Source: a virus
IMG/VR virus record: IMGVR_UViG_3300035138_000081
Length of the DNA: 64,000 bases
Strand: one strand, 5' to 3'
Shown: one piece after another, positions 8,873 through 37,384 of the stretch
Position numbering within the stretch: the first letter of the stretch is position 1
Layout of the letters: each line of letters opens with the position of its first letter
Position numbers and translations under genes: made by a program
The notes under the pieces: generated by a model
What the model saw: the letters and a program-made list of their open reading frames with translations, nothing else
Database searches by the model: none
Told to the model about the DNA's origin: nothing

Positions 8873-8901
8873 ATTATATATTAATTTTTAATAAAAATCA
8901 A
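8873..8901 (-). promoter_or_regulatory. sigma-A/sigma-70-like promoter
   Basis: Minus strand: TTGATT, 17 nt, TATAAT. Confidence 0.6.
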
Positions 8902-8925
8902 TGGTTTTTTATAAAAAATTTCCTA

Positions 8926-10806: not shown

Positions 10807-11120
10807 TCTTCATCCTCCTCTGCATCTGGATCTTCCCAATCGGATAGTTCACAGTCATCTCTTGAATCGCAATCTTCACAACTGCAACCGTCACAAAAGT
10901 CACTGCAAGGTAAAGTATCATCAGAACATTCTTTACAAATGTATTCACCACACGCACCACATTCACCAATTTGCGCATTTGAATAGCAATCTGTGCAAAA
11001 CCAGTTTTCACACGAGCAACATTCATACATTTCTTCTGGTGGCATTTCTTTACCGCAAGCATAACAAGTTTTTGAAATATCTCCTGTTTCTATATCTCCC
11101 ATATTAATCATTGAATTCAC
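10800..11120 (-). CDS. Cys-rich acidic protein (multi-zinc-ribbon-like)
   Basis: 106 aa with about 20 Cys in CxxC/CxC spacing and an acidic tail DWEDPDAEEDEEC. Confidence 0.55.
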   Translation of the reverse strand: MNSMINMGDIETGDISKTCYACGKEMPPEEMYECCSCENWFCTDCYSNAQIGECGACGEYICKECSDDTLPCSDFCDGCSCEDCDSRDDCELSDWEDPDAEEDEEC

Positions 11121-12306: not shown

Positions 12307-12346
12307 AATATATTCCTTTCTAATTTTTTTATTAATTTATATTTAT

Positions 12347-12375
12347 ATTATATATGAAAATTTAATAAAAATCAA
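12347..12375 (-). promoter_or_regulatory. sigma-A/sigma-70-like promoter
   Basis: Minus strand: TTGATT, 17 nt, TATAAT. Confidence 0.6.
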
Positions 12376-12393
12376 TGGTTTTTAATAGATTTT

Positions 12394-13983
12394 TTATAAA
12401 TTTTTATATAGATCTTTGACTAATTCTTTATCGTCTAAAATCGACGATAATAAATTTTGTTTTTCTTTCAACACTTGTTCTTTACGCGTTGCAACAGTAT
12501 TTTGTGCAATAATATGATAATATGTTTTCAAGCGAGTAGAATTCATTCTATGTATTCTATCTTCAAATTGCTCATTAACATGAGGTTGCCATGACTTATC
12601 TCCAAAGATCATATAATCACATTCATCAATAGATAGGCCTTCTGACATTGCAGCAATTGAGCCTACAAGTACCGCACGTTTTTGCTTTTTAAATTCTTGA
12701 CAAATAGCATCCCTATCTCTGGAAGCACCAGTAATTACATATACAGGTATCTTTGCTTTTTTAAGTTTTTCTGCAAGTAGAGTAGTTGCTTTAATGTAGT
12801 TTAAACCTACAATAACTCTTTGATTTCCAATATCTTGAATAAGTTCAAGAATTGTGTTTTCAACTACAGAATAATCTTCTCCTCCAAGTATTGCGGGATT
12901 TGCTACAATTTGTTGACCTCTAATAATAGCTTCAACTGCAGATTCTACAACTAAAGTATCTTCATCTTTACGTTGTACTACCATATTCTTCTTTAAAAGT
13001 TTATATGCTTTTGCTTGAGCACCATCTAACTTTACAGGTATTTCAATATGTCTCTTTTCTGGCAGACCTTCTTTCAATCTTCTAATTGAATAAAGTTGCA
13101 TTAGCCATTGAAGTTCTTTAATTTTATTTTGCTTTAAACCTTTGATTTCCTTACTGAAAAAGCCATCTTCAACTTCACAAAAATATTCTATAAATCCCCA
13201 CTTTGAAACAAATGCGTGTGGATCAATAATGTTCAATAGTTGCCAAACATCTTGAGGTGCATCACCAATAGGATTTCCAGTAGCTAGCCATACATGGTTT
13301 GCTTTAATCTTTTTAGCACCTTTAACAATTTGAGATTGAGGATTCTTTAATCTGTGACCTTCATCAAAGATAACTGCATCCCATTCTTGTTCATGCAAGC
13401 ATGGATAGCCACCTCTACTCTTTGCAAGTCTTAGCATTTCATAGTTTACTAAAGTATATCTTTCACTTTGATTGATAATTCTTTGACGTATATTCCTTTC
13501 ACCTTCACAGGGCTTAACTTTTATACCATACCACTTTAAAAACTCTCTTGCCCAATTCTTCTTAAGATATCCTGGAACAACAATTAAAACTTTCTGCCAT
13601 TGCAGAAGTTCCGCTAGAGAAATGAGTGACAAAGTTTTTCCTAATCCTCGATCGTCTGATAGGATACCACTTTTAGCAGCTTTTGCAAAGTGCAAGAAGT
13701 CAACTTGAATTTGAGATAATAACCTATGACCACAACGTTCGCCATGTGTACCTTTAACACGTAGCACTTTATTTATTCTTTCGGAAGTCATTTCTCTTAG
13801 CGGTATTAGGGCGTCTCCAAAATCAAAGAAAGTATCTAGTTGCCTATATGTTAAGGGGTTGATAGGAAAACTTATTATATCTTTTTTCGCATATGTTGCA
13901 CCAAAGATTTTTGTAAGTTTTTTGAAAGTGTCTTCATCAACATTTTTAAAATATATTCTGTTTCTCTTGTATTCATAATTCAT
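12394..13983 (-). CDS. SNF2-family helicase
   Basis: DDRGLGKT Walker A, IFDEGHRLKN (DEGH box), C-terminal helicase motifs. Confidence 0.85.
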   Translation of the reverse strand: MNYEYKRNRIYFKNVDEDTFKKLTKIFGATYAKKDIISFPINPLTYRQLDTFFDFGDALIPLREMTSERINKVLRVKGTHGERCGHRLLSQIQVDFLHFAKAAKSGILSDDRGLGKTLSLISLAELLQWQKVLIVVPGYLKKNWAREFLKWYGIKVKPCEGERNIRQRIINQSERYTLVNYEMLRLAKSRGGYPCLHEQEWDAVIFDEGHRLKNPQSQIVKGAKKIKANHVWLATGNPIGDAPQDVWQLLNIIDPHAFVSKWGFIEYFCEVEDGFFSKEIKGLKQNKIKELQWLMQLYSIRRLKEGLPEKRHIEIPVKLDGAQAKAYKLLKKNMVVQRKDEDTLVVESAVEAIIRGQQIVANPAILGGEDYSVVENTILELIQDIGNQRVIVGLNYIKATTLLAEKLKKAKIPVYVITGASRDRDAICQEFKKQKRAVLVGSIAAMSEGLSIDECDYMIFGDKSWQPHVNEQFEDRIHRMNSTRLKTYYHIIAQNTVATRKEQVLKEKQNLLSSILDDKELVKDLYKNL

Positions 13984-14443
13984 CTATTTGTACTCCAATC
14001 TCATCAATTGATATTTTAAGTATTTTATTGCAATAGCGTATGCCGTGAGCGATTGCATCAATTGCATGTCTTTTTTGAGAGTTATCTTTTTTAATATCAT
14101 TCCATTCAAAACTAGTATTTTCTGATAGCATATTTTTTGCAAATTGCAAATAGCCTTTCTTTTGAGCTTGTGTTTGCATGGCTATTTCAGATACCCAATG
14201 GTATTTTGCTTTAAGGGCACCAACAAGTTCAATAGTTGCTAAAGCTTCTTTTGTTAACGTTGCAAAAGGGTTTACAAATCTTTCAACTACAATGGTATCT
14301 ATAATACATTCATCATCAAAACTATTTTTGTATACAAACTCATCTGTGCAAAGGCCTGCATTAAGCAGTACAATGCTTGCGTTAACAACTTGAAACGTTG
14401 CATAGCCTGTTGTAAGTCCTGGATCAAAACATTTCAATAGCAT
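13973..14443 (-). CDS. RuvC-like Holliday junction resolvase
   Basis: CFDPGLTTGYA, VVERF and DAIAHG motifs. Start set to ATG 14443, which follows an AAAGGAG RBS. Confidence 0.7.
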   Translation of the reverse strand: MLLKCFDPGLTTGYATFQVVNASIVLLNAGLCTDEFVYKNSFDDECIIDTIVVERFVNPFATLTKEALATIELVGALKAKYHWVSEIAMQTQAQKKGYLQFAKNMLSENTSFEWNDIKKDNSQKRHAIDAIAHGIRYCNKILKISIDEIGVQIDEL

Positions 14444-14465
14444 AGTGTGTTCTCCTTTCATAATA

Positions 14466-18251: not shown

Positions 18252-18355
18252 TACCGCTAGAGGAACTAGAATACCCTTCTGTAAAATTTAATAAGTTATG
18301 GAAAATTCATTTTATATATAATGGATATAATCGATTTTAAATTGCCTTTTCGTAT
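18252..18355 (-). promoter_or_regulatory. composite intergenic element, copy E1 (reverse orientation)
   Basis: Contains CCGCTAGAGGAA, TTATATATAATGGATATAATCGATTTT (18312-18338) and CCTTTTCGTAT. It is the mirror image of the copies at 31347 and 42363. Confidence 0.3.
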
Positions 18356-18402
18356 AAATTATATAAACCGGTTAATTTAAATCGACTATATCCATTAATA
18401 TT

Positions 18403-18699
18403 TTAACCGTTTTCTATTTCTTTTTCTAACTTGGCTATGATAAATTTTTTATTTATAATAGCGTTTCTGGTATCCTTTTGATTTAATCTCAAATTAGAAA
18501 GTTGCCTTCTAATTTGAGATATCCTTACGCCTACAGAATTTGTACGTCTTATCGAGTTAATTCCTTTCAGGTAATCTAATTTCTTTTCCCTAGCGGTAAT
18601 TGCATCCGCTATACTTTTAGCTTCACTTTCATACCCGAGTAAAGAATTTTTAAGAATGCTTAATCTTTGCTGGGCCCATTTTTTATCTTCTGGTGCCAT
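18403..18699 (-). CDS. coiled-coil protein related to the array
   Basis: Start set to ATG 18699, which follows a GGGGGTG RBS. Helical, basic. Confidence 0.55.
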   Translation of the reverse strand: MAPEDKKWAQQRLSILKNSLLGYESEAKSIADAITAREKKLDYLKGINSIRRTNSVGVRISQIRRQLSNLRLNQKDTRNAIINKKFIIAKLEKEIENG

Positions 18700-19292: not shown

Positions 19293-19424
19293 CAGGGGCC
19301 CCCATTGTTTTTCCTTGGTGCATTTTATCTGTATAAAAAATCGTAGTATTTCTCCCATAAAAATAAAAATCGGAAAACATAACAAAAGAAGGAATGCGCT
19401 AGCATTCCATCTCCTGTTATTGCC

Positions 19425-19655
19425 TTATAAAGGCTTTTGTACGAAGTTGGCATATATCCAAAGTACTTTGGCCTGTATTAGACTTTGTACTGTGGTCCAT
19501 TCTACGCCTGCCAGCAATCGTCTTGCGGACAATTCACCAAATTCGATTGCTGCATAGAATTCCCTCACCTTATCAGCCTCTTCCACTGATAAGTGTTTTA
19601 AACTTTCGTCTCTATAACCATCCGCTTCCACTTGGAAATATTTTAACTTAAGCAT
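19425..19655 (-). CDS. hypothetical protein
   Basis: 76-aa ORF, overlaps the next gene by 8 nt, co-directional. Confidence 0.5.
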   Translation of the reverse strand: MLKLKYFQVEADGYRDESLKHLSVEEADKVREFYAAIEFGELSARRLLAGVEWTTVQSLIQAKVLWIYANFVQKPL

Positions 19656-21040: not shown

Positions 21041-21580
21041 ATGGCAAACACAAGGGAAAAACTGATGGCACGCTGGGACATCAAGGAACTGAACTATAAC
21101 ACACGCTGTAAAATAGCTGACATGTCTATATGGAAAGAATATGAAGAGGTTGCTAACTGTTACTTCTATAAAAGCAATGGCACAGCAAAGTTATTTGATG
21201 AGTATACAGCTATTGCTAGAAACAGAGTGCTAAACCATAAGAAATATATAAGAGTATTGGAAGGTTGCTATAATTACATGGAACAGAAATTTGAACGCTA
21301 TTGGGACTATAACTTAGATTTACATAAGTGGGATGACATTGTAGGTGCAATGAATAAATATCCTAAAGAAGTAGTATGGCACTGTCATATATTTAAAATA
21401 ATTTATAAAACTTGGGAAGGTAAATTCGTAGCACTCTTAAATACAGATGAGTGTAAAGATATAAGATTTGATGAAGCTATGGCAGCTAACTTAACACTAA
21501 TAACCCAAGCAATAGAAAACTGCAACATTACTTTAGCAAAGCACATTGGTAATAAGTGGATAAAAGGCATCGAAGGGTAA
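21041..21580 (+). CDS. hypothetical early protein
   Basis: 179-aa ORF with a GGGGGAAAA RBS. Confidence 0.6.
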   Translation: MANTREKLMARWDIKELNYNTRCKIADMSIWKEYEEVANCYFYKSNGTAKLFDEYTAIARNRVLNHKKYIRVLEGCYNYMEQKFERYWDYNLDLHKWDDIVGAMNKYPKEVVWHCHIFKIIYKTWEGKFVALLNTDECKDIRFDEAMAANLTLITQAIENCNITLAKHIGNKWIKGIEG

Positions 21581-21611
21581 ATAATTTTAAAAATCTAAGG
21601 AGGATACACAT

Positions 21612-21905
21612 ATGTATAGCTTTAAATTAAATTTAACACCAAGGGAAAACCGTGAATTGATAATAGACTTATTTAAAAGCCGTATTTTAAATAGCTTTGC
21701 TGCAAGTAAATATAAAGCAGCAAGACTTGAAGAACATTGTGAAAACAGAGATGAGTGGCCCTTTATTATAGAAACTTTAAAAGCTTTAAAAGCTGCAACA
21801 GAAGAAGATAAATGGGCAATAGAGATAGAGAAAAAAGCATATATCGCACATATAGATCATGCAATTAAGTGGGCGAAACATGTAAATGCAATCTTAAATG
21901 ATTAA
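21612..21905 (+). CDS. hypothetical early protein
   Basis: 97-aa ORF with an AAGGAGG RBS. Confidence 0.6.
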   Translation: MYSFKLNLTPRENRELIIDLFKSRILNSFAASKYKAARLEEHCENRDEWPFIIETLKALKAATEEDKWAIEIEKKAYIAHIDHAIKWAKHVNAILND

Positions 21906-21953
21906 TATAAAGGGATGCTATGCATCCCTAACATCTTTAAAGGAGGATGGATT

Positions 21954-22550
21954 ATGAAAGCTCAAGATTATGTTACTTATACTATCTCCCTATTGGAAAG
22001 AGCAGATGGTTTATCAAGAGAAGATAAATACATAATAGCTAATAAGCTTAGAAGATCCCAAATGGATTTGGACTCTTGCACAGCAGTATTAGGTATATTG
22101 CAAAGCATTGTTACAGAAGTGCAATATTATGCAGAAGATTTTAATAAAGCAGATGTTGCTAATACTATAGCAAACCTAAGAGATGTTCAGTCTCATTGGC
22201 AATCTCAAATGGATGCAATCCGCAAATTACCGCTAGAGGAAATTGAAAATACCCAAGGGGAAATTTTATTCTATGTGCTTTCTGTAGTAACTGACATAAC
22301 AGCATATTGCTATGGATATGATTCTGCAGAACAGATGACAGTTGACTTAAATATAGGTGCTGAAGAGCAAGTATTAGCATTGCCCGATGAGATTATATTA
22401 AACATGAGGCAAGCAATATTCACAGGCAAGGCTAGAGTAAAATGCATAGCAGAAAACAAAGCAATAAACATTATAGATGCAACAGTATATGCTTACCCAA
22501 TGAAGAAAAGAACTTTATATGTAGTACCAGCATATGACACTTTAGATTAA
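21954..22550 (+). CDS. hypothetical early protein
   Basis: Start set to ATG 21954, which follows an AAAGGAGG RBS. Confidence 0.6.
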   Translation: MKAQDYVTYTISLLERADGLSREDKYIIANKLRRSQMDLDSCTAVLGILQSIVTEVQYYAEDFNKADVANTIANLRDVQSHWQSQMDAIRKLPLEEIENTQGEILFYVLSVVTDITAYCYGYDSAEQMTVDLNIGAEEQVLALPDEIILNMRQAIFTGKARVKCIAENKAINIIDATVYAYPMKKRTLYVVPAYDTLD

Positions 22551-22574
22551 AATAAAACTTAGGAGGAATACCGT

Positions 22575-22724
22575 ATGGCATTATCATTATTAAAGAGTGC
22601 GTTAACAGAAGTTTACAGAGGTAAGAAAGATCAAGCATTAGAAAATCTATTGGGACTTACATTAAAATTAAATAATCTTTCCCTAGCGGTAATGGTGATA
22701 GATACCCGAACATATATAAAATAA
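22575..22724 (+). CDS. 49-aa hypothetical protein (below the ORF-track cutoff)
   Basis: AGGAGG RBS. Manual translation gives MALSLLKSALTEVYRGKK... Followed by a terminator. Confidence 0.45.
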   Translation: MALSLLKSALTEVYRGKKDQALENLLGLTLKLNNLSLAVMVIDTRTYIK

Positions 22725-22726
22725 AG

Positions 22727-22751
22727 AAAAGACCCATAGGGTCTTTTTTTT
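22727..22751 (+). terminator. rho-independent terminator
   Basis: AAAAGACCC, ATA loop, GGGTCTTTT, then a T-run. Confidence 0.75.
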
Positions 22752-22761
22752 ACCATAAAAT

Positions 22762-22782
22762 AAGAACCCCTTAGGGGTTCTT
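22762..22782. terminator. second hairpin between convergent genes
   Basis: AAGAACCCC, TTA loop, GGGGTTCTT. Confidence 0.6.
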
Positions 22783-22789
22783 ATTTTAT

Positions 22790-23383
22790 CTACCATTTAC
22801 ACTTTTGTTCCCATTGAGTTTTTCTTGCGGTAAACTTCTCAAAAGCAATTGCCCAGTAATCTAAGAACTCTGATGCTTCTACAAAAGTTAATTGCCTATG
22901 TGGTGCTCTTAAATCAAAGGCATTACATATTAAATTTACAAAGTTCATCTGTGCTGCACTGGCCATTCTTACTTTCTTACGTGCTTCCCTTTCTCTACGT
23001 GCTTTCTCTTCCCTTTCTCTTCTTTCTTGCTCTTCTCTTTGTCTTCGCCTTTGTGCCCATTCATGAAACATATTAAATGCAGAGTCTCCATAACCTCCAT
23101 TCATAAAGTCATCAAATTCATTTGCGCGATCATAGCTACTATAGCTATTAGAGTTCTTCTTATCTTCGTATGCTTTGCAATGTTGTGTATATAATGGACT
23201 TGAGTTATAGTTTGTTACATCATTACACGTAAAGCCTACATCTGCTTTCATTAATGTACTGACAATGCATTTCCATCTGTACTCTGCAGTTTCTTTTTCA
23301 CTTGATGTACCCCATAAGTACATCTTATAAACGTTCTTAGCTCTCCTAAATTTAGTTTGTACTGTTTTGCTATCCATAGTCAT
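22790..23383 (-). CDS. hypothetical protein with a charged RE-rich helix
   Basis: 197-aa ORF containing RRRQREEQERREREEKARREREARKK. Confidence 0.55.
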   Translation of the reverse strand: MTMDSKTVQTKFRRAKNVYKMYLWGTSSEKETAEYRWKCIVSTLMKADVGFTCNDVTNYNSSPLYTQHCKAYEDKKNSNSYSSYDRANEFDDFMNGGYGDSAFNMFHEWAQRRRQREEQERREREEKARREREARKKVRMASAAQMNFVNLICNAFDLRAPHRQLTFVEASEFLDYWAIAFEKFTARKTQWEQKCKW

Positions 23384-23386
23384 AAT

Positions 23387-23659
23387 CTACAGCCTCCTTA
23401 TTTTATTAAAAATTTCTCTATGCGATATATCGCCCTTCTCTAATATCTTCTCTGTCTCTTCTTCTGATAAACCTGCTACCTGTAATGAGTAACCTGCTAT
23501 CACGATAGGGTCTTCTTTTATAAAGCGTGAGTAAAAGTACCCACAATTCTTCCTAGCATCTAAAGCATTTTCTTCTGTAGTACACTTAACACAGTACCCT
23601 AACAGTGTACACTCTTTCCAATAGCCGCATATGCTATATGGCTGACCTATCTTGTGCAT
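23387..23659 (-). CDS. hypothetical Cys-containing protein
   Basis: 90-aa ORF, co-directional with the 22790 gene. Confidence 0.5.
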   Translation of the reverse strand: MHKIGQPYSICGYWKECTLLGYCVKCTTEENALDARKNCGYFYSRFIKEDPIVIAGYSLQVAGLSEEETEKILEKGDISHREIFNKIRRL

Positions 23660-23703
23660 TAGTATTCCCCCTTAGTATAATTTATTAAATATCTATATTA
23701 TAT

Positions 23704-23732
23704 ATTATATATTACTTTATTAAATAAATCAA
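23704..23732 (-). promoter_or_regulatory. sigma-A/sigma-70-like promoter
   Basis: Minus strand: TTGATT, 17 nt, TATAAT. Confidence 0.6.
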
Positions 23733-23750
23733 TATATTTTTAATAAATTA

Positions 23751-23882
23751 TTATTTTTCTTCTGTAGTTTCTTCAAAACCACAAGTTGGGCATTGCCTGA
23801 CAACTAATACGGTATCTTTATCTGGATGATTATACTCTCGTATTTTTACTAAGGTAGTACCATCATTTGGACATGTAGCCAT
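23751..23882 (-). CDS. 43-aa zinc-ribbon protein (below the ORF-track cutoff)
   Basis: Manual translation gives MATCPNDGTTLVKIREYNHPDKDTVLVVRQCPTCGFEE... Preceded by a GGAGG RBS. Confidence 0.45.
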   Translation of the reverse strand: MATCPNDGTTLVKIREYNHPDKDTVLVVRQCPTCGFEETTEEK

Positions 23883-23908
23883 CCTATCACCTCCTTACGT
23901 AAAAGTAT

Positions 23909-23937
23909 ATTATATGATATTTTAGTGTATAAATCAA
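23909..23937 (-). promoter_or_regulatory. sigma-A/sigma-70-like promoter
   Basis: Minus strand: TTGATT, 17 nt, TATAAT. Confidence 0.55.
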
Positions 23938-24005
23938 GAGGGTATATATAAATAAAATTATTAATATATTAATATAAAATTAATATATATTTTTATTAAA
24001 AACCC

Positions 24006-24034
24006 TTTATTTCCTTATTAAAATAATATATAAT
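24006..24034 (+). promoter_or_regulatory. sigma-A/sigma-70-like promoter
   Basis: TTTATT, 17 nt, TATAAT. Confidence 0.5.
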
Positions 24035-24093
24035 ATAATTATATTAATATTATAAATATTAATAAATAAATTATTTTTACAGGGGGAAATACT

Positions 24094-24318
24094 ATGGGTA
24101 ACACTACGGTAACACTAAGGGAAGTACAGGGTATAATTAACACTTTGGTAAAATATTACCTAACAGATAAGTGTACTATGGAAGAAGGGGGTATATTATT
24201 AACCCATATGGAAAAACTACAGAAACTTATGGATACTAAAGATAGTAACTCTATAGAATTACAAAACCAAAGGGATCTTATGGTAAAACTTTTAGGGGAT
24301 AAGGGGTTAACCATATAA
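24094..24318 (+). CDS. hypothetical early protein
   Basis: 74-aa ORF forming a single-gene unit with its own promoter and terminator. Confidence 0.6.
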   Translation: MGNTTVTLREVQGIINTLVKYYLTDKCTMEEGGILLTHMEKLQKLMDTKDSNSIELQNQRDLMVKLLGDKGLTI

Positions 24319-24336
24319 GGGATAATAAATAAATAT

Positions 24337-24374
24337 AAGTAAGGGGTATATACCCCTTACTTATTTTTTTTTTT
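24337..24374 (+). terminator. rho-independent terminator
   Basis: 12-bp stem AAGTAAGGGGTA/TACCCCTTACTT followed by a T-run. Confidence 0.85.
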
Positions 24375-24413
24375 AAATAATATAAAATTAATATATTTTT
24401 TATTAAAAATATA

Positions 24414-24442
24414 TTGATTTATTTATTAAAATACCTTATAAT
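24414..24442 (+). promoter_or_regulatory. sigma-A/sigma-70-like promoter
   Basis: TTGATT, 17 nt, TATAAT. Confidence 0.6.
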
Positions 24443-24496
24443 ATAATTATATTATTATTATTAATATATAAATATATTTTATAGGGGGAAATATTT

Positions 24497-24694
24497 ATGG
24501 ACACATTACAAAAGGCACTTAGGGAAATCTATGTTAAAGGTATAGACAGTGATACCGCAGTTAAGAAATATGGCCTTACAGAAGACGATTTGGTATACTT
24601 CTTCTTGGATGGTGACTTAAGTAATATCACTGATAGTAAACTAAGAGAAGCATTAGCAAAGAAACTTATGACATTTAGAGGTGAAAGGGGTTAA
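24497..24694 (+). CDS. hypothetical early protein
   Basis: 65-aa ORF with a GGGGGAAA RBS. Confidence 0.55.
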   Translation: MDTLQKALREIYVKGIDSDTAVKKYGLTEDDLVYFFLDGDLSNITDSKLREALAKKLMTFRGERG

Positions 24695-24698
24695 GATT

Positions 24699-24986
24699 AT
24701 GGACTGCAATGCACAGAATACTTTACTAGTGAAGGCTTATACCTTCACTGCTAAAACATTACCAAAGCAATTAGATACGGTAATGGCAGCAAAGAAAGAC
24801 TTTAAGGTTAATTGCTATGATGATGATACCTTACACATTCGCTTTGGAAGTAACAGCTTTGTACAGGCAGTATTAACACCACTTGGTAGATGGAGCGTAC
24901 TTATATATCATAACGGTTTTACTTACCAGGATGAGGGAAATGCAGAGCACTTAGGCTTACACCTACCATTTAATCAATCTTATTAG
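24699..24986 (+). CDS. hypothetical early protein
   Basis: Start set to ATG 24699, which follows an AAAGGGG RBS. Confidence 0.55.
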   Translation: MDCNAQNTLLVKAYTFTAKTLPKQLDTVMAAKKDFKVNCYDDDTLHIRFGSNSFVQAVLTPLGRWSVLIYHNGFTYQDEGNAEHLGLHLPFNQSY

Positions 24987-24998
24987 GGGGAATATATT

Positions 24999-25277
24999 AT
25001 GTGTAAAAAACTAATAGCAATGGCTAAGCTATTTAAACAGATGGAAAAGAAAGGGTTCATTACTGGACTCTCTCTAGATAAAATTATCTTAACTGATGAA
25101 TTCCATAAAGGTCATGGAAGTGTTAAGATTTGGGAAGGTACATATTGTGAACTATGGTACCTTGTAGAAAAGAATTGCTTTGTCACATGCAACTGTGATT
25201 TAAGTCATTTGGTAGAAGCATCTGCAATTGAGAGCAATATAAACTTATTATTAAAGCACTATATGGAGGAGATATAA
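24999..25277 (+). CDS. hypothetical early protein
   Basis: 92-aa ORF with a GGGGGAA RBS. Confidence 0.55.
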   Translation: MCKKLIAMAKLFKQMEKKGFITGLSLDKIILTDEFHKGHGSVKIWEGTYCELWYLVEKNCFVTCNCDLSHLVEASAIESNINLLLKHYMEEI

Positions 25278-25278
25278 T

Positions 25279-25767
25279 ATGACAAAAGCAGAAGATCCAT
25301 TCTTAAGAGAGAAACAAATGTTTCTGCAACAGTGCAAGATAGAAATCTGCAAGAAAGTTAAGAAAGCGGGTTTCATATCTAAGCAGATAAATTATAAGAT
25401 TCCTAAACCGACAGAAGTTTGGGAAATCTTAAACACAGATTTATACACTTTAGTATATACACCCGAAAGAGGTGTAATCTTAAATATTAAAGGGGCATGT
25501 GTAGATGAAATAGTTAAAAAGCAGATAGATAGCTTATACCATATCGCTAACAGCTTTAACAGAAAGACAGAGGCATTAGCTACAGTGTATGATGGATACT
25601 GTGATGTATTTAACACTAAAGGTCAAATACTTCGTCAGGAACCTTTGTTTAAAACAGTAGCTTCTCTAGCGGCAAATAACAATTCTCACAAAATAGATAA
25701 ACTTTTACAAGGAGAAACAATTCAAGTTGGTGTAGGGCGTTATAAAAGATCGTTTCCAGATGAATAA
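25279..25767 (+). CDS. hypothetical early protein
   Basis: 162-aa ORF with a GGAGGAG RBS. Confidence 0.6.
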   Translation: MTKAEDPFLREKQMFLQQCKIEICKKVKKAGFISKQINYKIPKPTEVWEILNTDLYTLVYTPERGVILNIKGACVDEIVKKQIDSLYHIANSFNRKTEALATVYDGYCDVFNTKGQILRQEPLFKTVASLAANNNSHKIDKLLQGETIQVGVGRYKRSFPDE

Positions 25768-25784
25768 CCGCTAGAGGAATTTAA

Positions 25785-25819
25785 AATAATTAGGCCCAAA
25801 GGTCTAATTATTTTTTTTA
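25785..25819 (+). terminator. rho-independent terminator
   Basis: AATAATTAGGCC, CAAA loop, GGTCTAATTATT, then a T-run. Confidence 0.8.
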
Positions 25820-25838
25820 TTTTTTTATAAAATACCCC

Positions 25839-25867
25839 TTGATTTTCTAACCAAAATATTATATAAT
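25839..25867 (+). promoter_or_regulatory. sigma-A/sigma-70-like promoter that leads into ORF-free DNA
   Basis: TTGATT, 17 nt, TATAAT. No ORF of 60 aa or more on either strand for the next 2.2 kb. Confidence 0.6.
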
Positions 25868-25873
25868 ATATTT

Positions 25874-27808
25874 AATATATAATATAGGAAGTACTATTAC
25901 TAAGCAGGTTGAAATACTTGTAACAGTAAGAAGAATGGAACCTATGTTGTAGAAGTGCACAAACGTGAGATGCATCAAAGCCTTAGAAAAGCTTTGTAAC
26001 ATTGATTTAAAGAGAGTGGAACTGTTAGTTAGCTCGCACGTAGACTTATGTAAAATAGTTGTCCGAAGGGACCGAAGAACATTACACCATCAAGATCCTA
26101 AGGGGATTTAATTGTAGTAACATCTCTGTGTGAAAAGCAGAGAATCACTTGCAAATACATTGCAATATGCTTAGATAAAGAACAGTGCACGATCGATGAG
26201 AGATATTGAAATGAAAGGGTGAAACTCCCTTGGTAAAAGTAGATATCAAGCAACTATAGAAAATATGTCGAGTACGGAATTATTATATAGAGCTTTTATA
26301 CCAAGACGCTACTTTATAACTAGGTTAAAGCTTAAGGGTAGGCTAGGGTATATCAATTAATTGATGAAGGTTCTGAAGCTCAAGAAAGGGATAGGTCAAT
26401 AACAAACTATTGAGAATTTAATAAGGATATAATATTACCCAAGTAGATCCAAAAGAGGTCCAGGGAAATAGAATATCTTTAGAAAATTTAATATAGTGAG
26501 GATCTTGAACGGAGTATTGAAGGGGGGGAAACTTCTGTAACTAAGATCGGTTGTAAGATGAGTAACTTATAGTGAAAACTTACGATAGCGGGAAGGGATT
26601 GTTGATATTACTTAATGCGAACCAGGAGGTTGGTAGCCAACGAAGTTCGCAAACGAAAATGGGAATGCCGAATAGTTTTTCAAAGCTTAGAGAAAGCGAA
26701 ACGAGAAAAGCAGCTTTAATAAAAATATAAAGAGGCCAATGGAGCATATAAAAGTTCATCTCTCGTGTGAATAGGAGTAAGCAGAGAATCTTCCTGATAA
26801 AAGGTTCTAGAGATAGACCGTGCTAGCAATAGAATTATTGGGGTGTGCATTGTATATAGCTATTTAGATTGAGGCTTACGCTGTCACAAAGCGTAAGGGG
26901 AAACTCTCTAAGATGAAAAAGCTGAAACTAGGGAGGATGCATTATTTAAGACAGGTACTTTCCAATACCGAAAGCTTTAGAAGTTGTAAAGCCTTAAAGA
27001 CAGATGCCAATTCTTATTTAGAACTTAATAGAAGTAGGCTATAGGGATTGTTTATTGAACAGTGGGTATGTTTGCAGTTTGAATAAAACTAAGGAGTGAA
27101 ACTTAGCAAAGTTCAAAAACATATTAGATATAAACAACTAAGTACCTTTCTATACTTAGGATTGATATAGTTTAAGCTTCTAAAGAGTTACAGGTAAGTC
27201 TTAAATACCATGTTAGCGTTGTAACTATGCAGTATAGAATGACCCTTACGCACTTACAAAAAGTGTAAAAGCATAATTAAGTTTATGTAGAGGCTATCTT
27301 ACCTTAGCAGTTAAAGCAAAGCTGCATGTAAGGGATAGCATATATGATTAATAAGCTCTAACGCTACAGAAAACTGTTGAATCATATATGTAGTTGAATA
27401 TATTAGCATAGACAAGTTGATATAGTAACCAACAGTTATCTTATATATGAAGAGGACTTACACACACATAGTCTAGTGATACTTAAAAATTATTGTAGAA
27501 CTCTAGCGCTAAGGGTTATCCAATACAAAATTTTTATTAGGTGTATAGTCTTTTACATTTAGCATGTATATATATCTATAAAGCTCCTCCTATAACAGAA
27601 CACTCTTTGTATTTACTTATAAATAATTAATAACTACTTACGCTTAAGCACAATAACCGCTAGAGAAACCCTATGCTGTTTTTTTGTGTTAAGTTGTATT
27701 AAGCAAGTTTACCCAACACAGTAACATATATAAACACTATAGCGTAAAGTTTTTACGTATTTAGTGCCTATTAAATAATTAATAGGCCATACCCTAGGTA
27801 TTTTTTTA
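25874..27808 (+). ncRNA. candidate large structured non-coding RNA (about 1.9 kb)
   Basis: Sits between a consensus promoter and a hairpin plus T-run. All three stop codons are frequent in every frame. G+C is visibly higher than in the spacers. Many stems of 7-11 bp (26617-26650, 26875-26897, 27089-27106, 27293-27339, 27340-27389). Confidence 0.35.
27789..27808 (+). terminator. short hairpin plus T7
   Basis: ATACC, CTA loop, GGTAT, then TTTTTTT. The stem is only 5 bp. Confidence 0.35.
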
Positions 27809-28306
27809 AATTATTTTTTTATTTTTTTTTTTATTTTTTTTTTTAACCCTTTGCCGCTAGAGGATTGGTTTATTACCTTGCCTTTAGTGTTACTTTGTAG
27901 GTATTAATTTTTTATTAAATTTTTGGGTTTTTGCTGATAGAGGGGGATATAAATTAAATTTTTTTTTTGGAAAAAATAAATTATATCTCATTGGTATAAA
28001 AAACATATATATATATATATGCGATCGAATATATTGGGAGTCCCATTTTCCATTAGTAAGTTATTATTAATATATTATTAATATATTATATCTTTAAATA
28101 TATGGTATATACTGTAGTATACTCCAATATTCTCCATTTTTTAGATTTATATTCCTACATATATACATACCTATTCCATATCATTTATAGGACATATTCC
28201 GAGGAGCTATACTTTATTTTTCCCAATATTTTTTTTTTATATATAACCCCAAAAATTCCGCCAAACCCAAAAACCACCCAAAATTCAAGATACCGTCACC
28301 CAATTA

Positions 28307-28336
28307 ATAAAAAGGAAATAGTTCCTCTAGCGGAAA
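28307..28336 (+). repeat. 30-nt exact repeat, copy 1
   Basis: ATAAAAAGGAAATAGTTCCTCTAGCGGAAA is identical to 42403-42432. Confidence 0.85.
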
Positions 28337-28359
28337 GAGCCAGGAACACCACAGAAAAA

Positions 28360-28527
28360 TAATAATAATTATAAAAGAAAATTATTATTATTATAAATCA
28401 TTATAAATAATAATTATTTAATAATTAAATAATTAATAATTAATAATTAAATAATTATTAAATAATAATTAATTAATAATTAAACAATTATTAAATAATA
28501 ATAATTAAAATTAATAATTAATTAATA
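28360..28527. repeat. nearly pure A/T block of AATTATTAAATAAT-type repeats
   Basis: Tandem and inverted A/T-only repeats with almost no G or C. Confidence 0.8.
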
Positions 28528-28724
28528 GCTAAGGATAACAGAGAAGAGCACCTGCTTAGATAAGACTGCTAACTTACTGCTAAGGGTAAACCTATTCCCT
28601 AGAGGAAACTTGCACCCCCTATAGAAACAGACTACCCCTGTGAATTGTTACCCGGTGGTAAAATATTAAGCAGGTGACAAAATTTTAGGGTGTGGGCGAT
28701 TTTAGGAATCCCCGTATATTTTAA

Positions 28725-28804
28725 ACCGGATGGATAAAAATAAAGGAACCGAACCGAACCGACGAAAAAACCCTAAATACGAAGGGATACCGGATGGATA
28801 AAAA
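28725..28804 (+). repeat. direct repeats ACCGGATGGATAAAAA x2 flanking (GAACC)x3
   Basis: 16-mers at 28725-28740 and 28789-28804, with GAACCGAACCGAACCGA between them. Confidence 0.7.
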
Positions 28805-29210
28805 ATAAAAATAAAAACCAATTTTAAATATAAAAACCGAAATTATTTACCGTACGTTCTTGCGCAACCTCAAACACCCAAGTGGGCGAGAACCATGCAG
28901 ACTTAACCAAAATGGAGTCAATTCCTTTAGCGGTAAGTCTGCTTGTTGATGTTGTAATTCCTCAAGAGGGGAACTGTGAAGAAGGAATTGTTACTGACTG
29001 TTTTGAGTTTCCGACTCTTGAGGGGTAGTGTTGGGTTATTGGGAGGGAAGGGGTTTGGAGGTGAGAATGCTTGAGGCGACAAGTTTGGTTACCGAATCAA
29101 AAGATTGATTTCTGCGAAGAAGTGTTTTACCGCGAAACCGAAAATTTTTGAAATTTCGCAAGTTTTCCCGTTTGGTTGGTTTCCTTCCGGTTACTCGATC
29201 CGTTCAGGCG

Positions 29211-29235
29211 TTTTATGTTTGAAAATCATCACGGG
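29211..29235 (+). repeat. 25-nt conserved box, copy B
   Basis: TTTTATGTTTGAAAATCATCACGGG matches 19268-19292 at 23 of 25 positions. Confidence 0.6.
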
Positions 29236-29336
29236 AGGGTACGCGTTCAAAATTCCCTAGGGGGTTAACTACTATAAAAATTTAGGTTAGTTTTTCTCGC
29301 GCCCAAAAAAAATTTTATGTGCGACGGCTCAGGGAC

Positions 29337-29387
29337 GCATAAAGTACTGGGGCTCCGTATAAAGTACTGGGACCCCGTATAAATTTA
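29337..29387 (+). repeat. about 20-nt direct repeats, 2.5 copies
   Basis: CGCATAAAGTACTGGGGCT, CCGTATAAAGTACTGGGACC, CCGTATAAATTT. Confidence 0.7.
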
Positions 29388-29795
29388 AATAAAAAAAAAA
29401 TAATTATAAATTATAATTATTATAATTTATAATTATTTTTTTATTTAATTATTAAAATTAAAAAGAATTATATATTTTAATATTTATAATTTATAATATT
29501 TATCATTTATTATAATTATATTTTTTAATATTTATAATAAATGATAATTATAATTTATAATTATTAAAATTTTTAATAAATATAAAAATATAAAAAAATT
29601 TTTAAATTTTTAAAATTTTATATAAATTAGAGTATTTATTAATAAATTAATAATATATTAATATAATCTAATATAATTCCCTTATATAATATTTTATTAA
29701 TTTTATAATATATTATATAATATTATTATATTAATAATATATAATATATTATATTATATTATTATATTATTATATTATTAATAAATAATATAATA
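29388..29795. repeat. nearly pure A/T palindromic/tandem repeat block
   Basis: Long A/T palindromes, for example TAATTATAAATTATAATTATTATAATTTATAATTA near 29401-29440. Confidence 0.75.
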
Positions 29796-29809
29796 AAGGG
29801 GAAATAAAA

Positions 29810-30463
29810 ATGGGTAAAACTACAAATACCATAACTAAAACTGGGGATAATAACAATAATAATACTAATACTATAGGGGGGGATAATAATTTAAATAATT
29901 TAATTATTAATAATTTAAATAATACTTTAAATAAAACTAATAATTTAAATATTAATAATTTATTTTTTAATAATATTAATATAATTAATAATTTAAATTT
30001 TAATAATTTAAATAATTTAATTATTTTAAATAATAATAATTTTAAAATAGAATTATTAAATAATAATTTAATTATATTATTAAAAAATTATAATTTAAAT
30101 AATTATAATAATTATATTAATTTACAAAAATTATATTTAAATTTAAATAATTTTAATATTTTTTATAATATTATTATTAATAATTTAAATTTAAAAAATA
30201 TAATAATTAAAAAATATAATTTAAATAATAATAATATTAATTTTTTAAATATATATAACTTTATTTATATATTTAAATCTTCTAATTTAAATAATAAAAT
30301 AAATAATTTTTTATTAAATTTAAATAATATTATAAATAATAATAATTTAAATATTTTAAATATTAATACATTTAATAATAAAGAATATAAATTATTAGAA
30401 GATTTAAATATTATATCCCATAATATTAAATATAGTATAAATATTAATAATAATAATATTTAA
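29810..30463 (+). CDS. Asn/Ile/Leu-rich low-complexity ORF (coding status uncertain)
   Basis: 217 stop-free codons in roughly 95% A/T DNA. Has an AAAGGGGAAATAAAA-ATG RBS like the early genes. The normal-looking N-terminus MGKTTNTITKTGDNN is followed by NNLNNL-type repeats. Confidence 0.4.
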   Translation: MGKTTNTITKTGDNNNNNTNTIGGDNNLNNLIINNLNNTLNKTNNLNINNLFFNNINIINNLNFNNLNNLIILNNNNFKIELLNNNLIILLKNYNLNNYNNYINLQKLYLNLNNFNIFYNIIINNLNLKNIIIKKYNLNNNNINFLNIYNFIYIFKSSNLNNKINNFLLNLNNIINNNNLNILNINTFNNKEYKLLEDLNIISHNIKYSININNNNI

Positions 30464-31190
30464 AAAATTTAATAATTATATTATTTAATTAATTTATTTA
30501 ATAATTATAAATTATAATTATAATTTATAATTATTATTTTTTATAATTTTTTAATTAAATTTTTTAATTATTAAATTTTTTAATTATTAAATTTAATAAT
30601 TAAATTTTTTAATAATTAAATTTTTTAATACCCGGAGATTTTTAATAATTAAATTTTTTAATTATTAGGGCCCCAAATATTTTTGCCCCATAATAATTAA
30701 ATTTTTTAATTAAATTTTTTAATTATTTGGACCCAAAATTATTATGAGGCATAATAATTAAATTTTTTAATATTTTTTTAATGGGGGAAATAAACCCGGT
30801 ATTTTGCCCCGGTTATATAACCCCGTTTATATACCCGGCTATATATACGGGCTATATTAAGGCTGCTATTAATATTATTAATTTATTATTATTAATATAT
30901 TAATAATATTAATAATAATATTAATATTATTAATATATTATATATTATAATAATTATATTATTTAATTATTATTATAATTAATAATTAAATATAATAATT
31001 ATTTAATTAATATATAATAATAATTATATAATATAATAATTAAATAATATAATAATTAAAAAATATAATTATTATATTATTTAATTATATTTTTTAATTA
31101 TTATTTTTTAAAATTATTAAATTTTTTAATTATTAAATTTTTTAATAATTAAATTTTTTAATAATTAAATTTTAAAATATTTTGCCCTGC
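30464..31190. repeat. A/T repeat block (AATTAAATTTTTTAAT units) with embedded G/C islands
   Basis: Repeated AATTAAATTTTTTAATTATT units interrupted by short islands such as ACCCGGAG, GGGCCCC, GGACCC. Confidence 0.75.
30795..30860 (+). repeat. iteron-like tandem repeats CCCGG(Y)TATATA, 4-5 copies
   Basis: CCCGGTATTTTG, CCCCGGTTATATAA, CCCCGTTTATATA, CCCGGCTATATATA, CGGGCTATATTA. Confidence 0.65.
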
Positions 31191-31346
31191 GGCGGTAAAA
31201 TACTCGAGGCGTTTATACTTCCCCCGCTTAATCTCTTCTCCCCCCAAATAGACCTTGACTCTTTTTGCTCAAGCCAAGACGTGGCTCAAGCCAAGCTTTA
31301 TATAAACCAGTTTTTAACCGAATAAAAAATCAACGGTTGAATAAAT

Positions 31347-31427
31347 ATACGAAAGGATTATTTTAATTGGTTTATATCCATTATATATAAAACCATCAAT
31401 TTGGTTCCTTGTTCCCCTAGCGGCTAT
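31347..31427 (+). promoter_or_regulatory. composite intergenic element, copy E2
   Basis: ATACGAAAGG, then TATATCCATTATATATAA, then TTCCCCTAGCGGC. Same order as copy E3. Confidence 0.3.
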
Positions 31428-31502
31428 CTTGCGTGCAAACAAAAACCGAAACACGAGCACCTAAAAAAATTTTATAAAAAAAAATAAAATTTAGTAAAAA
31501 CA

Positions 31503-35210: not shown

Positions 35211-35825
35211 ATGAAAACTGTTACGAGTGAAGAGTTACAAAAACATAAGAAGATATGCCCAGTGTGTAATAGCCCAAAGGCGAGTTTATATAATGGTGGC
35301 TTGATTGCAGGAGTTGCAGAAATAGTTGTTATGAATAGAATGATTGCTGATGGAATATATGTAACTTTAACACAGATAATGGAACATAGCAAGTATATGC
35401 ACCAGTTAGTGGATGATAGTGATTTGGAGAATTGCATACAGAAATGGGGAGAACATTTATGTGATGAAAGCAATACACTTACTAAAGTGCAAGAACAAGT
35501 TGCTATTACAGAACTAAATGATTTTGTAGCTAAGAAAACAGTTAATGAAATGATTTGGCAAGAAGGTTTACCACTTGCAATGGGTAGACTTACTGGTGCT
35601 TTAAAAAATAATACTTTGAAACCACATGAGTTATGCAAGATAGTAGATACTATGATGAAGTGTGGTTTAGTTTTAAGTGATGAATTAAAAACAGGAAATA
35701 ACAGAATTGTAATTGCAGAAGAAACAGAAAGAGCAAATGTAAGAAAACCACAAACATTAGGTAGTTTAGAAGATACCTTATTAGAAATTGAAGACTTTAA
35801 TACTAAGAAAGTGAATGGAAAATAG
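35211..35825 (+). CDS. putative terminase small subunit (assigned by position)
   Basis: 204-aa ORF immediately upstream of and overlapping terL. N-terminal CPVC. No family motif recognised. Confidence 0.35.
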   Translation: MKTVTSEELQKHKKICPVCNSPKASLYNGGLIAGVAEIVVMNRMIADGIYVTLTQIMEHSKYMHQLVDDSDLENCIQKWGEHLCDESNTLTKVQEQVAITELNDFVAKKTVNEMIWQEGLPLAMGRLTGALKNNTLKPHELCKIVDTMMKCGLVLSDELKTGNNRIVIAEETERANVRKPQTLGSLEDTLLEIEDFNTKKVNGK

Positions 35826-37384
35826 TGTCTCTAGCGGAAAACTTACTGAACTTGTCAAAGGCTAAGAATGCGAATTTTTTAGAAACTAAAACAGAATCAA
35901 CAGGACGGCATAGCAAACTACCAGAAGAGTTTGCTTTAAAACCGAGTGCATTGATAGCACGTGATACTATGAAGGCGTTACCGAAAGAAAAGCGTATTCA
36001 GTTAGCTTTAGCAAATCCAGTAATTTTCGGAGAATACTATATAAAACCGTATGTAAGGAAGTGGAATAGTTGGACTGCTGATCATCAATTCTTTATGTTA
36101 GAAGAATCAATGAAATATCGAGATATTGTTATACATGTCCCAGTTGAACATGCAAAAAGTACTTGGTTTAGCTTAGTAGTACCTCTTTGGCTTATGTGCA
36201 GAGATAGAAATACACAGGGAGCTATCATAAGTAATACAAGTAGGCAAGCAGAAGGCTTTCTTGCAGCCATCAAATGGCATATTGAGTATAATGACATATT
36301 TAGAGAAGATTTTGGAGATTACGTTTTACCTAATAAGAAAGAAGCGAAATGGACGGATAGTCAAATCTTTGTTGTAAGAGACGCAGAAGAACAATCGAAA
36401 GATCCAACGATACTAGCAATAGGTACTGGAGGTGCTTTGTTAGGTGCAAGATTGGATTGGGTTATTGCTGACGACATCTTAGACCTTAAAAATAGCCAAA
36501 CTGAAATAATGAGAGACAAAGTTGAAAGTTGGTGGGATGAGATAGTTGATAGTCGTGTTGTGGATGGTGGGAGAAGAATAGTTCTTGGTACCTTACAACA
36601 CACTAAAGATTTACTATGCGTGCTTAGCGACCGAAAGAGTTATCATTATGTACACTTAGCTGCTTGGGATAAAGATACCAATGCTACTTTATGGCCAGAC
36701 CAATGGCCGCTAAGGAGAGTAATGCAAAAGAAGGCAACCATTGGTACTTTGAAGTGGAATAAAGTAATGCAAAATGATAGAAGTGCAATTAGTGTAGGCA
36801 TTCTTGATGATAAGTGGCTAAACTATTATGATAATCTACCTCCTACCAATAGATTAAAGGTGTACATTGGAGTTGATCCAGCAATAGCAGATGACAGGAC
36901 TACTGCCGAAAGCAAAGCACAAGACAAATTTGGTCTTGTGGTTGTAGGCTATGATGGCATAAGAGCATACCTTCTTGAAGAGTATGAAGAATGGTTAACA
37001 TTTCCTGAGCAACTGAAACTGATTGATGTGTTCAACTCTAAATGGTCACCTATCATGATAGGTATTGAAAGTGTTCAGTATCAAAAAGCACTTGCACAAG
37101 CTAGTTTGTTACTCAGTAGTTTACCACCAGTTCTTCCAATTCCTGTTGGTACACAGAGTAAAGCAACTAGGATTGAAGCATTTAGTGTTTATTGTGAAAA
37201 TAAAGTTTTCTGGATTGGTCGGCATCATGAGCGTTTCATTGAAGAATGGCGTTCTTGGGAACCAGGCGGAAAAAGTCCAAACATTCTTGATGCAAGTGTT
37301 ATTGCAATGATGTGCATCAAGAGTAGAGGTAATATAGAAGATATACAGCTTATACCGAATTCTATACAGCATGTTAGTTGGTAA
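35825..37384 (+). CDS. terL: terminase large subunit
   Basis: 519 aa. ATPase Walker B-like DWVIADDILD and a nuclease-domain IGVDPAIADD pattern. Sits upstream of the portal gene. Confidence 0.8.
   Translation: MSLAENLLNLSKAKNANFLETKTESTGRHSKLPEEFALKPSALIARDTMKALPKEKRIQLALANPVIFGEYYIKPYVRKWNSWTADHQFFMLEESMKYRDIVIHVPVEHAKSTWFSLVVPLWLMCRDRNTQGAIISNTSRQAEGFLAAIKWHIEYNDIFREDFGDYVLPNKKEAKWTDSQIFVVRDAEEQSKDPTILAIGTGGALLGARLDWVIADDILDLKNSQTEIMRDKVESWWDEIVDSRVVDGGRRIVLGTLQHTKDLLCVLSDRKSYHYVHLAAWDKDTNATLWPDQWPLRRVMQKKATIGTLKWNKVMQNDRSAISVGILDDKWLNYYDNLPPTNRLKVYIGVDPAIADDRTTAESKAQDKFGLVVVGYDGIRAYLLEEYEEWLTFPEQLKLIDVFNSKWSPIMIGIESVQYQKALAQASLLLSSLPPVLPIPVGTQSKATRIEAFSVYCENKVFWIGRHHERFIEEWRSWEPGGKSPNILDASVIAMMCIKSRGNIEDIQLIPNSIQHVSW

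Follow-up and report, generated by a model that had tools for sequence, protein, structure and literature searches.

The DNA examined here, referred to throughout as the window, comprises 64,000 nucleotides of the IMG/VR virus record IMGVR_UViG_3300035138_000081 and accounts for the greater part of an uncultured tailed-phage genome of approximately 31% G+C. The subject of this analysis is a putative non-coding transcription unit of about 1.9 kb on its plus strand, which begins with a promoter at 25839 and ends with a terminator-like hairpin at 27808. The minus strand of the window carries, at 52-14461, replication genes (primase/helicase, helicase and PD-(D/E)XK nuclease) together with a 7-deazaguanine synthesis cluster, and the plus strand bears the structural module, with the large terminase at 35825-37384, the portal at 39458, the protease at 42452 and the tape measure at 49462. 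The unit sits between the packaging module and an operon of small plus-strand genes, the last of which encodes a protein of 162 amino acids and ends with its own stop codon at 25767. An intrinsic terminator of this operon (25783-25826, plus strand; a 14-bp stem followed by a T-run, -14.1 kcal/mol, z-score -4.8) separates the unit from the 162-residue gene. A contig from the Logan collection (run SRR11698124) is 100% identical to positions 21251-27840 of the window, and this second assembly implies that the sequence is not an artefact of a single assembly.

Directly after the terminator lies a sigma-70-type promoter (TTGATT-N17-TATAAT, 25839-25867, plus strand), one of 17 near-identical copies of the class TTGATT-N17-TAWAAT in the window, where 1.62 +/- 1.22 would be expected by chance. 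The copies share the orientation of the genes around them, the exception being the copy at 4416, which opposes its surrounding genes. In 15 of the 17 cases the Shine-Dalgarno sequence and ATG of a real open reading frame (ORF) follow 26-58 nt past the -10 box; the two promoters lacking such a downstream gene start are the copy at 4416 and the promoter of the unit. The leader of the unit begins with ATATTTAATA, which is common to several of the sister promoters, and contains (25868-25900) a Shine-Dalgarno-like AGGAAG followed by ATT at the position occupied by ATG in the sister leaders. From this ATT the open frame extends for only 18 codons, and the arrangement may be what is left of an earlier gene start, or it may encode a short leader peptide. 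The predicted untranslated transcript body spans 25875-27808 on the plus strand (approximately 1.93 kb), its probable 5' end being placed from the -10 box and its 3' end from a pair of terminator-like hairpins at 27766-27808 (plus strand; a 9-bp stem, then ATACC/GGTAT, then seven T residues; -12.6 kcal/mol, z-score -2.7). The distal member of this pair, ATACC-CTA-GGTAT with its T-run, occupies 27789-27808, and T-rich runs extend past the end of the unit to 27846. A consensus terminator scan did not call the hairpins of 27766-27808 because their stems have few G-C pairs. Judged by sequence consensus and statistics, the locus has the two elements that define a bacterial-type transcription unit, namely, on its upstream side, a promoter of the class that recurs in this phage and, on its downstream side, an intrinsic terminator. 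This supports its description as a stand-alone, promoter-to-terminator non-coding unit predicted from the phage sequence.

Across 25868-27808 there is no ORF of at least 60 amino acids on either strand, the longest having 59 residues on the minus strand and 52 on the plus strand. Each plus-strand frame contains 21-28 TAA, 17-23 TAG and 6-16 TGA codons, a stop density approximating the expectation from base composition in all three frames. TGA is rare on the minus strand (1-6 per frame), and every one of the six frames has 21-29 TAA codons. If any one stop codon is treated as sense, the longest frame that results has 101 codons on the plus strand and 149 on the minus. Given that TAA is frequent in all six frames, no single reassignment yields a long frame, and the genes of the phage themselves end with all three stops (TAA 20, TAG 10 and TGA 7). 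Recoding of TAG, TGA or TAA as sense is thus ruled out. None of the ORFs of at least 30 amino acids uses codons as genes do (top score +0.10; genes, +0.10 to +0.50), and the six reading frames are indistinguishable in codon-usage score. Scored in windows of 40 codons, the best frame has a coding potential of -0.368, equal to that of shuffled sequences (-0.372 +/- 0.036) and below that of genes (+0.05 to +0.21), which excludes even a heavily frameshifted recent pseudogene. Gene callers placed no gene in the part of locus L001 covering the stretch. Six-frame translations compared with PHROGs gave nothing significant (one match, E 0.32), and no significant match was obtained with the frames of both strands against 50,697 phage genomes (tblastn), nor with the plus-strand frames against 5.8 billion proteins. 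Likewise, neither the ORFs of relatives nor the proteins of the window itself matched the region when searched against it. A test for a pseudogene thus found no residual protein similarity, codon phase or ORF fragments; the early regions of the relatives are unrelated mosaics and offer no positional homologue of the unit for comparison with an intact gene.

The strongest positive result is the excess of G+C over neutral sites. G+C amounts to 33.6% across 25875-27810 and to 36.3% in a purine-rich core at 25900-27100 (plus strand), where G reaches 23.4% against 12.9% C, and A 37.2% against 26.5% T. At four-fold-degenerate sites of 43 genes G (6.6%) and C (6.3%) are about equally scarce, and A (44%) and T (43%) about equally frequent, so that G+C is 12.9% and the strands show no skew; short true spacers have 9-12% G+C. 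The unit therefore has nearly three times the G+C of unconstrained sites, as well as a G>C and A>T asymmetry that is not seen at four-fold sites. The stretch is thus not drifting neutrally. DNA old enough to retain no sign of a reading frame would be expected to have come close to 13% G+C and to show no skew, an expectation that stems from reasoning and not from a measured rate. The purine excess on one strand over 1.2 kb in turn suggests that a plus-strand transcript, rather than duplex DNA, is the selected product, and the composition as a whole favours a functional plus-strand RNA. The k-mer content is also unlike that of genes, with AAGGG at 6.5 against 0.7 per kb and GGGG at 5.7 against 0.7 per kb (8- to 9-fold); AAGGG is present 8 times in the unit where 2.0 are expected. 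There are no internal repeats within 25868-27798, which is unique-sequence DNA unlike the neighbouring 27.8-31.2 kb, and no iteron, CRISPR-like or sponge arrays occur in the unit (no direct or tandem repeats), such arrays starting at 27799. A sponge RNA was considered and rejected: GGA occurs 23 times against 24.7 in shuffles, Shine-Dalgarno-like motifs form no array, and only AAGGG and G-runs are enriched. A preliminary description of the locus, made from the sequence, had noted the promoter behind a strong terminator, the closing hairpin with its seven T residues, the lack of any ORF of 60 residues, the frequency of all three stop codons and a G+C content above that of the true spacers. These observations all stand, the one concerning stop codons holding for the plus strand.

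Taken together, the above features suggest that the unit is real and unusual rather than an artefact, and that it is an orphan and probably functional non-coding unit. The interpretation that we favour, tentatively and at a little short of an even chance, is that it represents a lineage-specific gene for an untranslated plus-strand RNA of approximately 1.9 kb, which would be under selection, mostly loosely structured with one or a few folded modules, and either trans-acting or a precursor. In such a scheme one of the 17 stereotyped host-type promoters would direct transcription into the unit, the upstream operon having been stopped just before it, and the strand-asymmetric constraint would reflect selection on the single-stranded transcript and not on duplex DNA. 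Being C-poor and G-rich, the RNA is expected to be a poor substrate for Rho, and could therefore be synthesized to full length without translation. It would remain mostly loose, the only defined folds being a module of about 220 nt at 27205-27428 and a few hairpins, and during infection it may work in trans, as a regulator or a decoy, or else give rise to smaller RNAs as their precursor. Beyond the transcription of the unit and the maintenance of its transcript, this mechanism is something that we infer.

Several observations weigh against this proposal. The unit is an orphan, its sole other copies being 100% identical contigs, and five relatives with terminases 64-72% identical to that of the phage are without the region at both the DNA and the protein level. 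The other member of the terminase cluster turned out to be this phage again, from the same Logan run, and the closest relatives share the structural module, with early regions that are unrelated mosaics containing no long ORF-free tract of this kind. Searches with blastn and nhmmer of the terminase-anchored loci of the five closest relatives and two duplicate contigs (L004-L010) gave no match, the unit was found in none of nine loci from relatives, and blastn against phages and against plasmids was equally negative. A terminase-anchored scan of IMG/VR returned only relatives of 28% identity, those of GTDB genomes and JGI metagenome contigs returned none, and the large-collection DNA scans, which used exact patterns only (three segments of the region against IMG/VR, GTDB and JGI contigs), had no hits. 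The neighbouring 162-residue protein likewise has no relative but itself among 5.8 billion proteins. In addition, the base composition of the unit and the frame-averaged composition of the phage's genes agree to within 0.006 per base, which may reflect a coincidence arising from selection on the transcript or point to an unusual ancestry. Its dinucleotide signature lies at the top edge of the genome range (delta* 146 against 82 +/- 42) and leaves room for a fairly recent acquisition, and the leader with AGGAAG and ATT fits a unit that formerly expressed a gene. Finally, the overall thermodynamic signal discussed below is not strand-specific, the minus strand folding equally well or better.

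The most serious competitor is the unlikely but appreciable prospect that the stretch is inert DNA, namely a foreign non-coding fragment of recent acquisition, or what remains of a gene cassette after loss of its gene. Lying behind a promoter that is still active, it would not yet have moved to the AT-rich equilibrium of the phage. Its restriction to a single lineage and absence from all relatives seen, the ATT found in place of ATG behind the Shine-Dalgarno-like leader sequence, the atypical dinucleotide signature, and the fact that neither structure nor conservation is demonstrated are all consistent with such an origin. However, none of the protein comparisons (PHROGs, the 50,697 phages in all frames and the 5.8 billion proteins in plus frames) recovered a remnant, and the DNA of phages and plasmids gave no match. 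There is also no local codon phase, and the stop density on the plus strand is near random. The substitutions erasing a frame should moreover have pulled the G+C towards 13% and removed the G>C skew, and the composition of the unit points the other way.

The preliminary description had gone further and proposed a giant structured non-coding RNA packed with well-formed stems, comparable to GOLLD, ROOL or HEARO. Every stem that it named exists where it was placed, and the recurrent GTGAAAC-type loop is likewise present (GTGAAAC at 26219 and 27096, GTGAAAAC at 26572). The density of stems is nevertheless that of shuffled sequences and coding genes: perfect-stem hairpins of at least 6, 7 and 8 bp number 22, 6 and 3, against 17.7, 4.6 and 1.4 in dinucleotide shuffles and 19-25, 7-10 and 2-6 in four gene segments of the phage. 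The positional entropy of the unit (1.205; shuffles, 1.135 +/- 0.10) and its fraction of bases paired at p>0.9 (0.109; shuffles, 0.120) do not set it apart, and ensemble diversity also equals that of shuffles. The mean z-score of 200-nt windows is -0.72 on the plus and -1.00 on the minus strand, against -0.21 and -0.65 in neighbouring genes (P=0.04 and 0.09). For folds of 1 kb the z-scores are -2.5 and -3.1 (plus strand) and -3.3 and -3.8 (minus strand), and those of 14 coding controls, whose means are -0.64 and -0.84, span +1.3 to -3.9. The Infernal search that the description had proposed gave no match at gathering score in the whole window with any of the 4227 models of Rfam 15, and at E<=10 only noise from microRNA, small nucleolar RNA and small RNA models together with a 20-bit ribosomal RNA fragment far below threshold; the searches covered the whole window, 5.9 kb and 2 kb, and the 2-kb search too gave nothing but noise. 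Rfam contains profiles for GOLLD, ROOL and OLE (PMC12286853). With no Rfam match beyond noise, whether to large structured RNAs of the GOLLD, ROOL, HEARO, OLE or raiA class or to other models, the region belongs to no described RNA family. Group I and group II introns were rejected too, there being no Rfam match, a stop and terminator belonging to the upstream gene itself, and no downstream exon.

The best-supported folded element is a module of approximately 220 nt at 27205-27428 on the plus strand (-64.3 kcal/mol, z-score -5.23), in which the minimum free energy (MFE) structure coincides with the centroid. It consists of a long closing helix around a multi-hairpin junction (27243-27334, with four small hairpins) and a hairpin with an 11-bp stem (27338-27391), and it alone is strand-specific, its z-score on the minus strand being -1.55. 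The module was chosen post hoc, and a z-scored scan for local folds on both strands of the whole window places it about 20th among 196 clusters, some of those ahead of it lying inside genes; it is therefore to be regarded as a reasonable candidate for a folded module and not as proof of one. Within it, GUAAGGG(AUAGC) at 27328-27339 can pair either with CCCUUAC at 27243-27249, as in the MFE fold, or with GCUAUCUUAC at 27294-27303, the stem given in the preliminary description, the two helices being mutually exclusive. Other plus-strand hairpins of the unit are a long imperfect one at 26403-26501 (-22.9 kcal/mol, z-score -3.9; -4.76 in the local scan, with -4.72 on the minus strand), a two-tier hairpin at 26616-26651 in which GCGAAC/GTTCGC encloses GTTGG-TAG-CCAAC (-13.6 kcal/mol, z-score -2.7), and an 8-bp hairpin, CTTACGCT / AGCGTAAG, at 26875-26897 (-11.3 kcal/mol, z-score -3.1). 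The hexamer CTTACG occurs four times in the unit (26578, 26875, 27246 and 27640), where 0.27 are expected. Elsewhere in the window, local folds with z-scores of -6.3 to -8.4, beyond any within the unit, were observed at 22686-22958, 18277-18539, 57653-57915, 19374-19600 and 25303-25484; several of these loci are intergenic, the last lies inside the 162-residue gene, and as predicted folds they are candidates for terminators or small structured elements.

In light of these results, it is improbable that the whole 1.9 kb constitutes one giant, defined and ornate RNA of the GOLLD, ROOL or OLE kind, perhaps forming a multimer or a ribozyme. The unit does resemble such RNAs in being ORF-free and phage-borne, in having its own promoter and terminator, and in a G+C content well above neutral. 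The 1-kb z-scores of the plus strand and the module with its coinciding MFE and centroid structures point in the same direction, as do a mild excess of GAAAC(T) (GAAAC 7 against 2.3 expected) and the number of GNRA hairpins (8 against 4.2 +/- 2.0 in shuffles, P=0.07; 4-7 in gene segments). The scan for GNRA and UNCG loops does not, on the other hand, lift the region clearly above the genome background, and the 11-nt tetraloop-receptor half-site TATGG is absent from the unit. Against a single giant fold there also stand the lack of any Rfam family even at E<=10, the agreement of hairpin density, positional entropy and confident pairing with shuffles, the equal or better folding of the minus strand, the modest rank of the best module, and the want of homologues for covariation. 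GOLLD and ROOL are often, though not obligatorily, found near transfer RNA (tRNA) islands in phages and prophages (PMC12286853), and ARAGORN detected no tRNA, and hence no such island, in the 64-kb window. Of the earlier proposal, the stand-alone non-coding unit survives and a plus-strand product is favoured, whereas the dense, large and defined architecture finds no support in the Rfam, hairpin, entropy and z-score tests, and the label of a giant structured non-coding RNA is not earned by the available evidence. Similarly doubtful, as judged from sequence features, is the proposition that the locus typifies a new class of very large (approximately 1.9 kb) functional phage RNA with no Rfam relative, with strand-specific selection and with at least one compact folded module, which might serve in infection as a ribonucleoprotein scaffold, a decoy or a ribozyme.

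The ORF-free tract runs beyond the unit, there being no credible gene in 27809-29809, and the unit thus sits in a 5.8-kb tract without conventional genes that makes up about 9% of the genome. Directly after it comes a 3.7-kb block without conventional genes (27809-31500). T-runs occupy 27799-27846, GC-rich islands with short direct repeats lie at 28.5-29.4 kb, including a direct repeat, ACCGGATGGATAAAAA, found twice near 28728 and 28790, and a 20-nt unit is present in 2.2 copies at 29339-29383. These are followed at 29400-31150 by low-complexity DNA of approximately 8% G+C with GC clusters, containing about four copies of CCCGGNTATATA at 30807-30857. Independent assemblies break at 26526, 27840 and 31144: a JGI contig of 4751 nt stops at about 26526 (a computed position) within a run of seven G residues, and Logan contigs stop at 27840 and restart at about 31144, flanking the low-complexity block. 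A plus-strand ORF of 217 residues at 29810-30463, made up almost entirely of Asn, Ile, Leu and Lys and encoded by DNA of about 1-13% G+C, has strong three-base periodicity, a gene-like codon score of +0.21 and AAAGGGGAAATAAAAATG resembling a ribosome-binding site, and no Pfam match; it may encode a genuine repeat protein of extreme A+T richness, or have arisen by accident from an AAT-type repeat. One relative (L004) has a comparable block at 7216-8254, shorter but likewise AT-rich and with GC clusters, which lies upstream of its packaging genes. As this block occurs there without the unit, the block rather than the unit is the conserved architectural element, and it is probably an origin or a packaging region, with a genome-end region as a further candidate.

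A 10-mer, CCGCTAGAGG (at most one mismatch; extended consensus ttaCCGCTAGAGGaa), is found 35 times in the window against 0.33 expected. Its copies lie on both strands, in genes and in spacers (for example at 2470, 9327, 18254, 22230, 25768, 27854, 42420 and 57348), and its reverse complement ends in AGCGG. The gaps between copies are more even than random (coefficient of variation 0.58 against 0.96, P=0.0003), and 20 of 34 fall between 1.5 and 2.7 kb, where 7.3 are expected. The motif is absent from the relatives' loci L002-L006, and a scan of IMG/VR with the 14-mer TACCGCTAGAGGAA gave only single, apparently random matches. From their sequence and distribution, these sites are possible site-specific nick sites, targets of DNA modification, repressor sites resembling stoperators, or Chi-like signals, and the lattice they form may be more remarkable than the unit itself. 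One copy, AATAACCGCTAGAGGAA (25763-25779, plus strand), marks the 5' border of the unit, and a second, AATAACCGCTAGAGAAA (27652-27668, plus strand), lies 1889 bp downstream in its 3' part.

This setting raises the improbable alternative that the unit works at the level of DNA or through the act of transcription, by activating or priming the AT-rich block in the way of an R-loop or of transcriptional activation, or by serving as a spacer in the lattice of CCGCTAGAGG sites with its period of approximately 1.9 kb. The promoter does face a block containing iteron-like repeats and a tract of 8% G+C (27.8-31.2 kb), L004 has its similar block upstream of packaging genes, and the distance between the motif copies at the ends of the unit falls inside the preferred spacing. 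G-rich transcripts favour RNA-DNA hybrids, as for ColE1 RNA II, and by analogy the transcript of the unit may do so as well. However, terminator-like hairpins and long T-runs stand between the unit and the block, a primer or activator transcript of 1.9 kb would be long, repeats and binding-site arrays are absent from the unit itself, and relatives carry an AT-rich block without such a unit. Hidden coding, in the form of a cluster of very small proteins or of a gene with a reassigned stop or frameshifts, is highly implausible, since the ORFs that might be cited for it (43 residues at 26913-27044, with a GGGG-rich motif 12 nt before its ATG, and 52 residues from a GTG at 26572-26730, with a weakly positive codon score of +0.10) stand against the abundance of TAA in all six frames of a phage that uses all three stops, the absence of any gene-like codon usage or local frame signal, and the identical Logan assembly, which excludes sequencing frameshifts. 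A selected, untranslated plus-strand transcript remains the interpretation that we prefer for the unit.

Elsewhere in the window, the 7-deazaguanine (queuosine-precursor) cluster lies on the minus strand at 52-5382 and includes a glutamine amidotransferase-QueC-like protein (52-1455), GTP cyclohydrolase I (3275-3841), a radical-SAM QueE-like protein (3853-4482) and PTPS/QueD (4864-5382), all on the minus strand, with a dATP/dGTP diphosphohydrolase domain at 2222-2641 in the region of the cluster. This gene content suggests that the DNA of the phage is probably hypermodified.

Tailed-phage genomes are gene-packed, so a promoter-to-terminator unit of 1.9 kb without coding capacity is unusual in this setting. 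Its 34-36% G+C with a strong excess of G over C, against neutral sites with 13% and no skew, indicates that the stretch is maintained, most simply as RNA. Confirmation would make it the longest non-coding RNA gene so far known in a phage, and would offer a new way into RNA-based interactions between phage and host. If it proved instead to be inert DNA, it would show how visually impressive hairpins can mislead, their density here being that of shuffled sequence.

The literature yielded no account of a comparable phage locus, and the nearest known systems each share some of its features. A decayed pseudogene would resemble the unit in its normal gene-type promoter and leader and in its gene-average base composition, but the unit has neither protein similarity nor codon phase, its stops are near random and its k-mers are unlike those of genes. 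The transcripts of ColE1 RNA II and of the promoter-dependent origins of T7 and T4 are G-rich and directed towards an AT-rich, repeat-bearing region, as that of the unit may be; the unit is much longer, terminators intervene, and the region it faces is only a candidate origin. With the sponge RNAs CsrB and RsmZ it shares an untranslated, purine-rich character and G-rich motifs, and it differs from them in having no repeated array of hairpin-loop GGA motifs and no internal repeats. Like GOLLD and ROOL, which occur in phages and prophages and are transcribed during infection (PMC12286853), it would be a large ORF-free RNA gene borne by a phage. It is more than twice as long as GOLLD, which has approximately 800 nt (PMC12286853), and differs from both in lacking an Rfam match, a nearby tRNA island, a defined predicted architecture and a family of homologues. 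A further point of comparison is the pRNA of phi29. This phage-encoded non-coding RNA has 174 nt, so the unit is about ten times longer; the unit also has no Rfam match and lies about 8 kb from the terminase gene rather than beside the genes of the packaging motor. Nonetheless, it resembles the pRNA in its predicted nature as an untranslated RNA, in the use of a host-type phage promoter and in the possession of a putative compact multi-helix module, which in the unit would correspond to 27205-27428.

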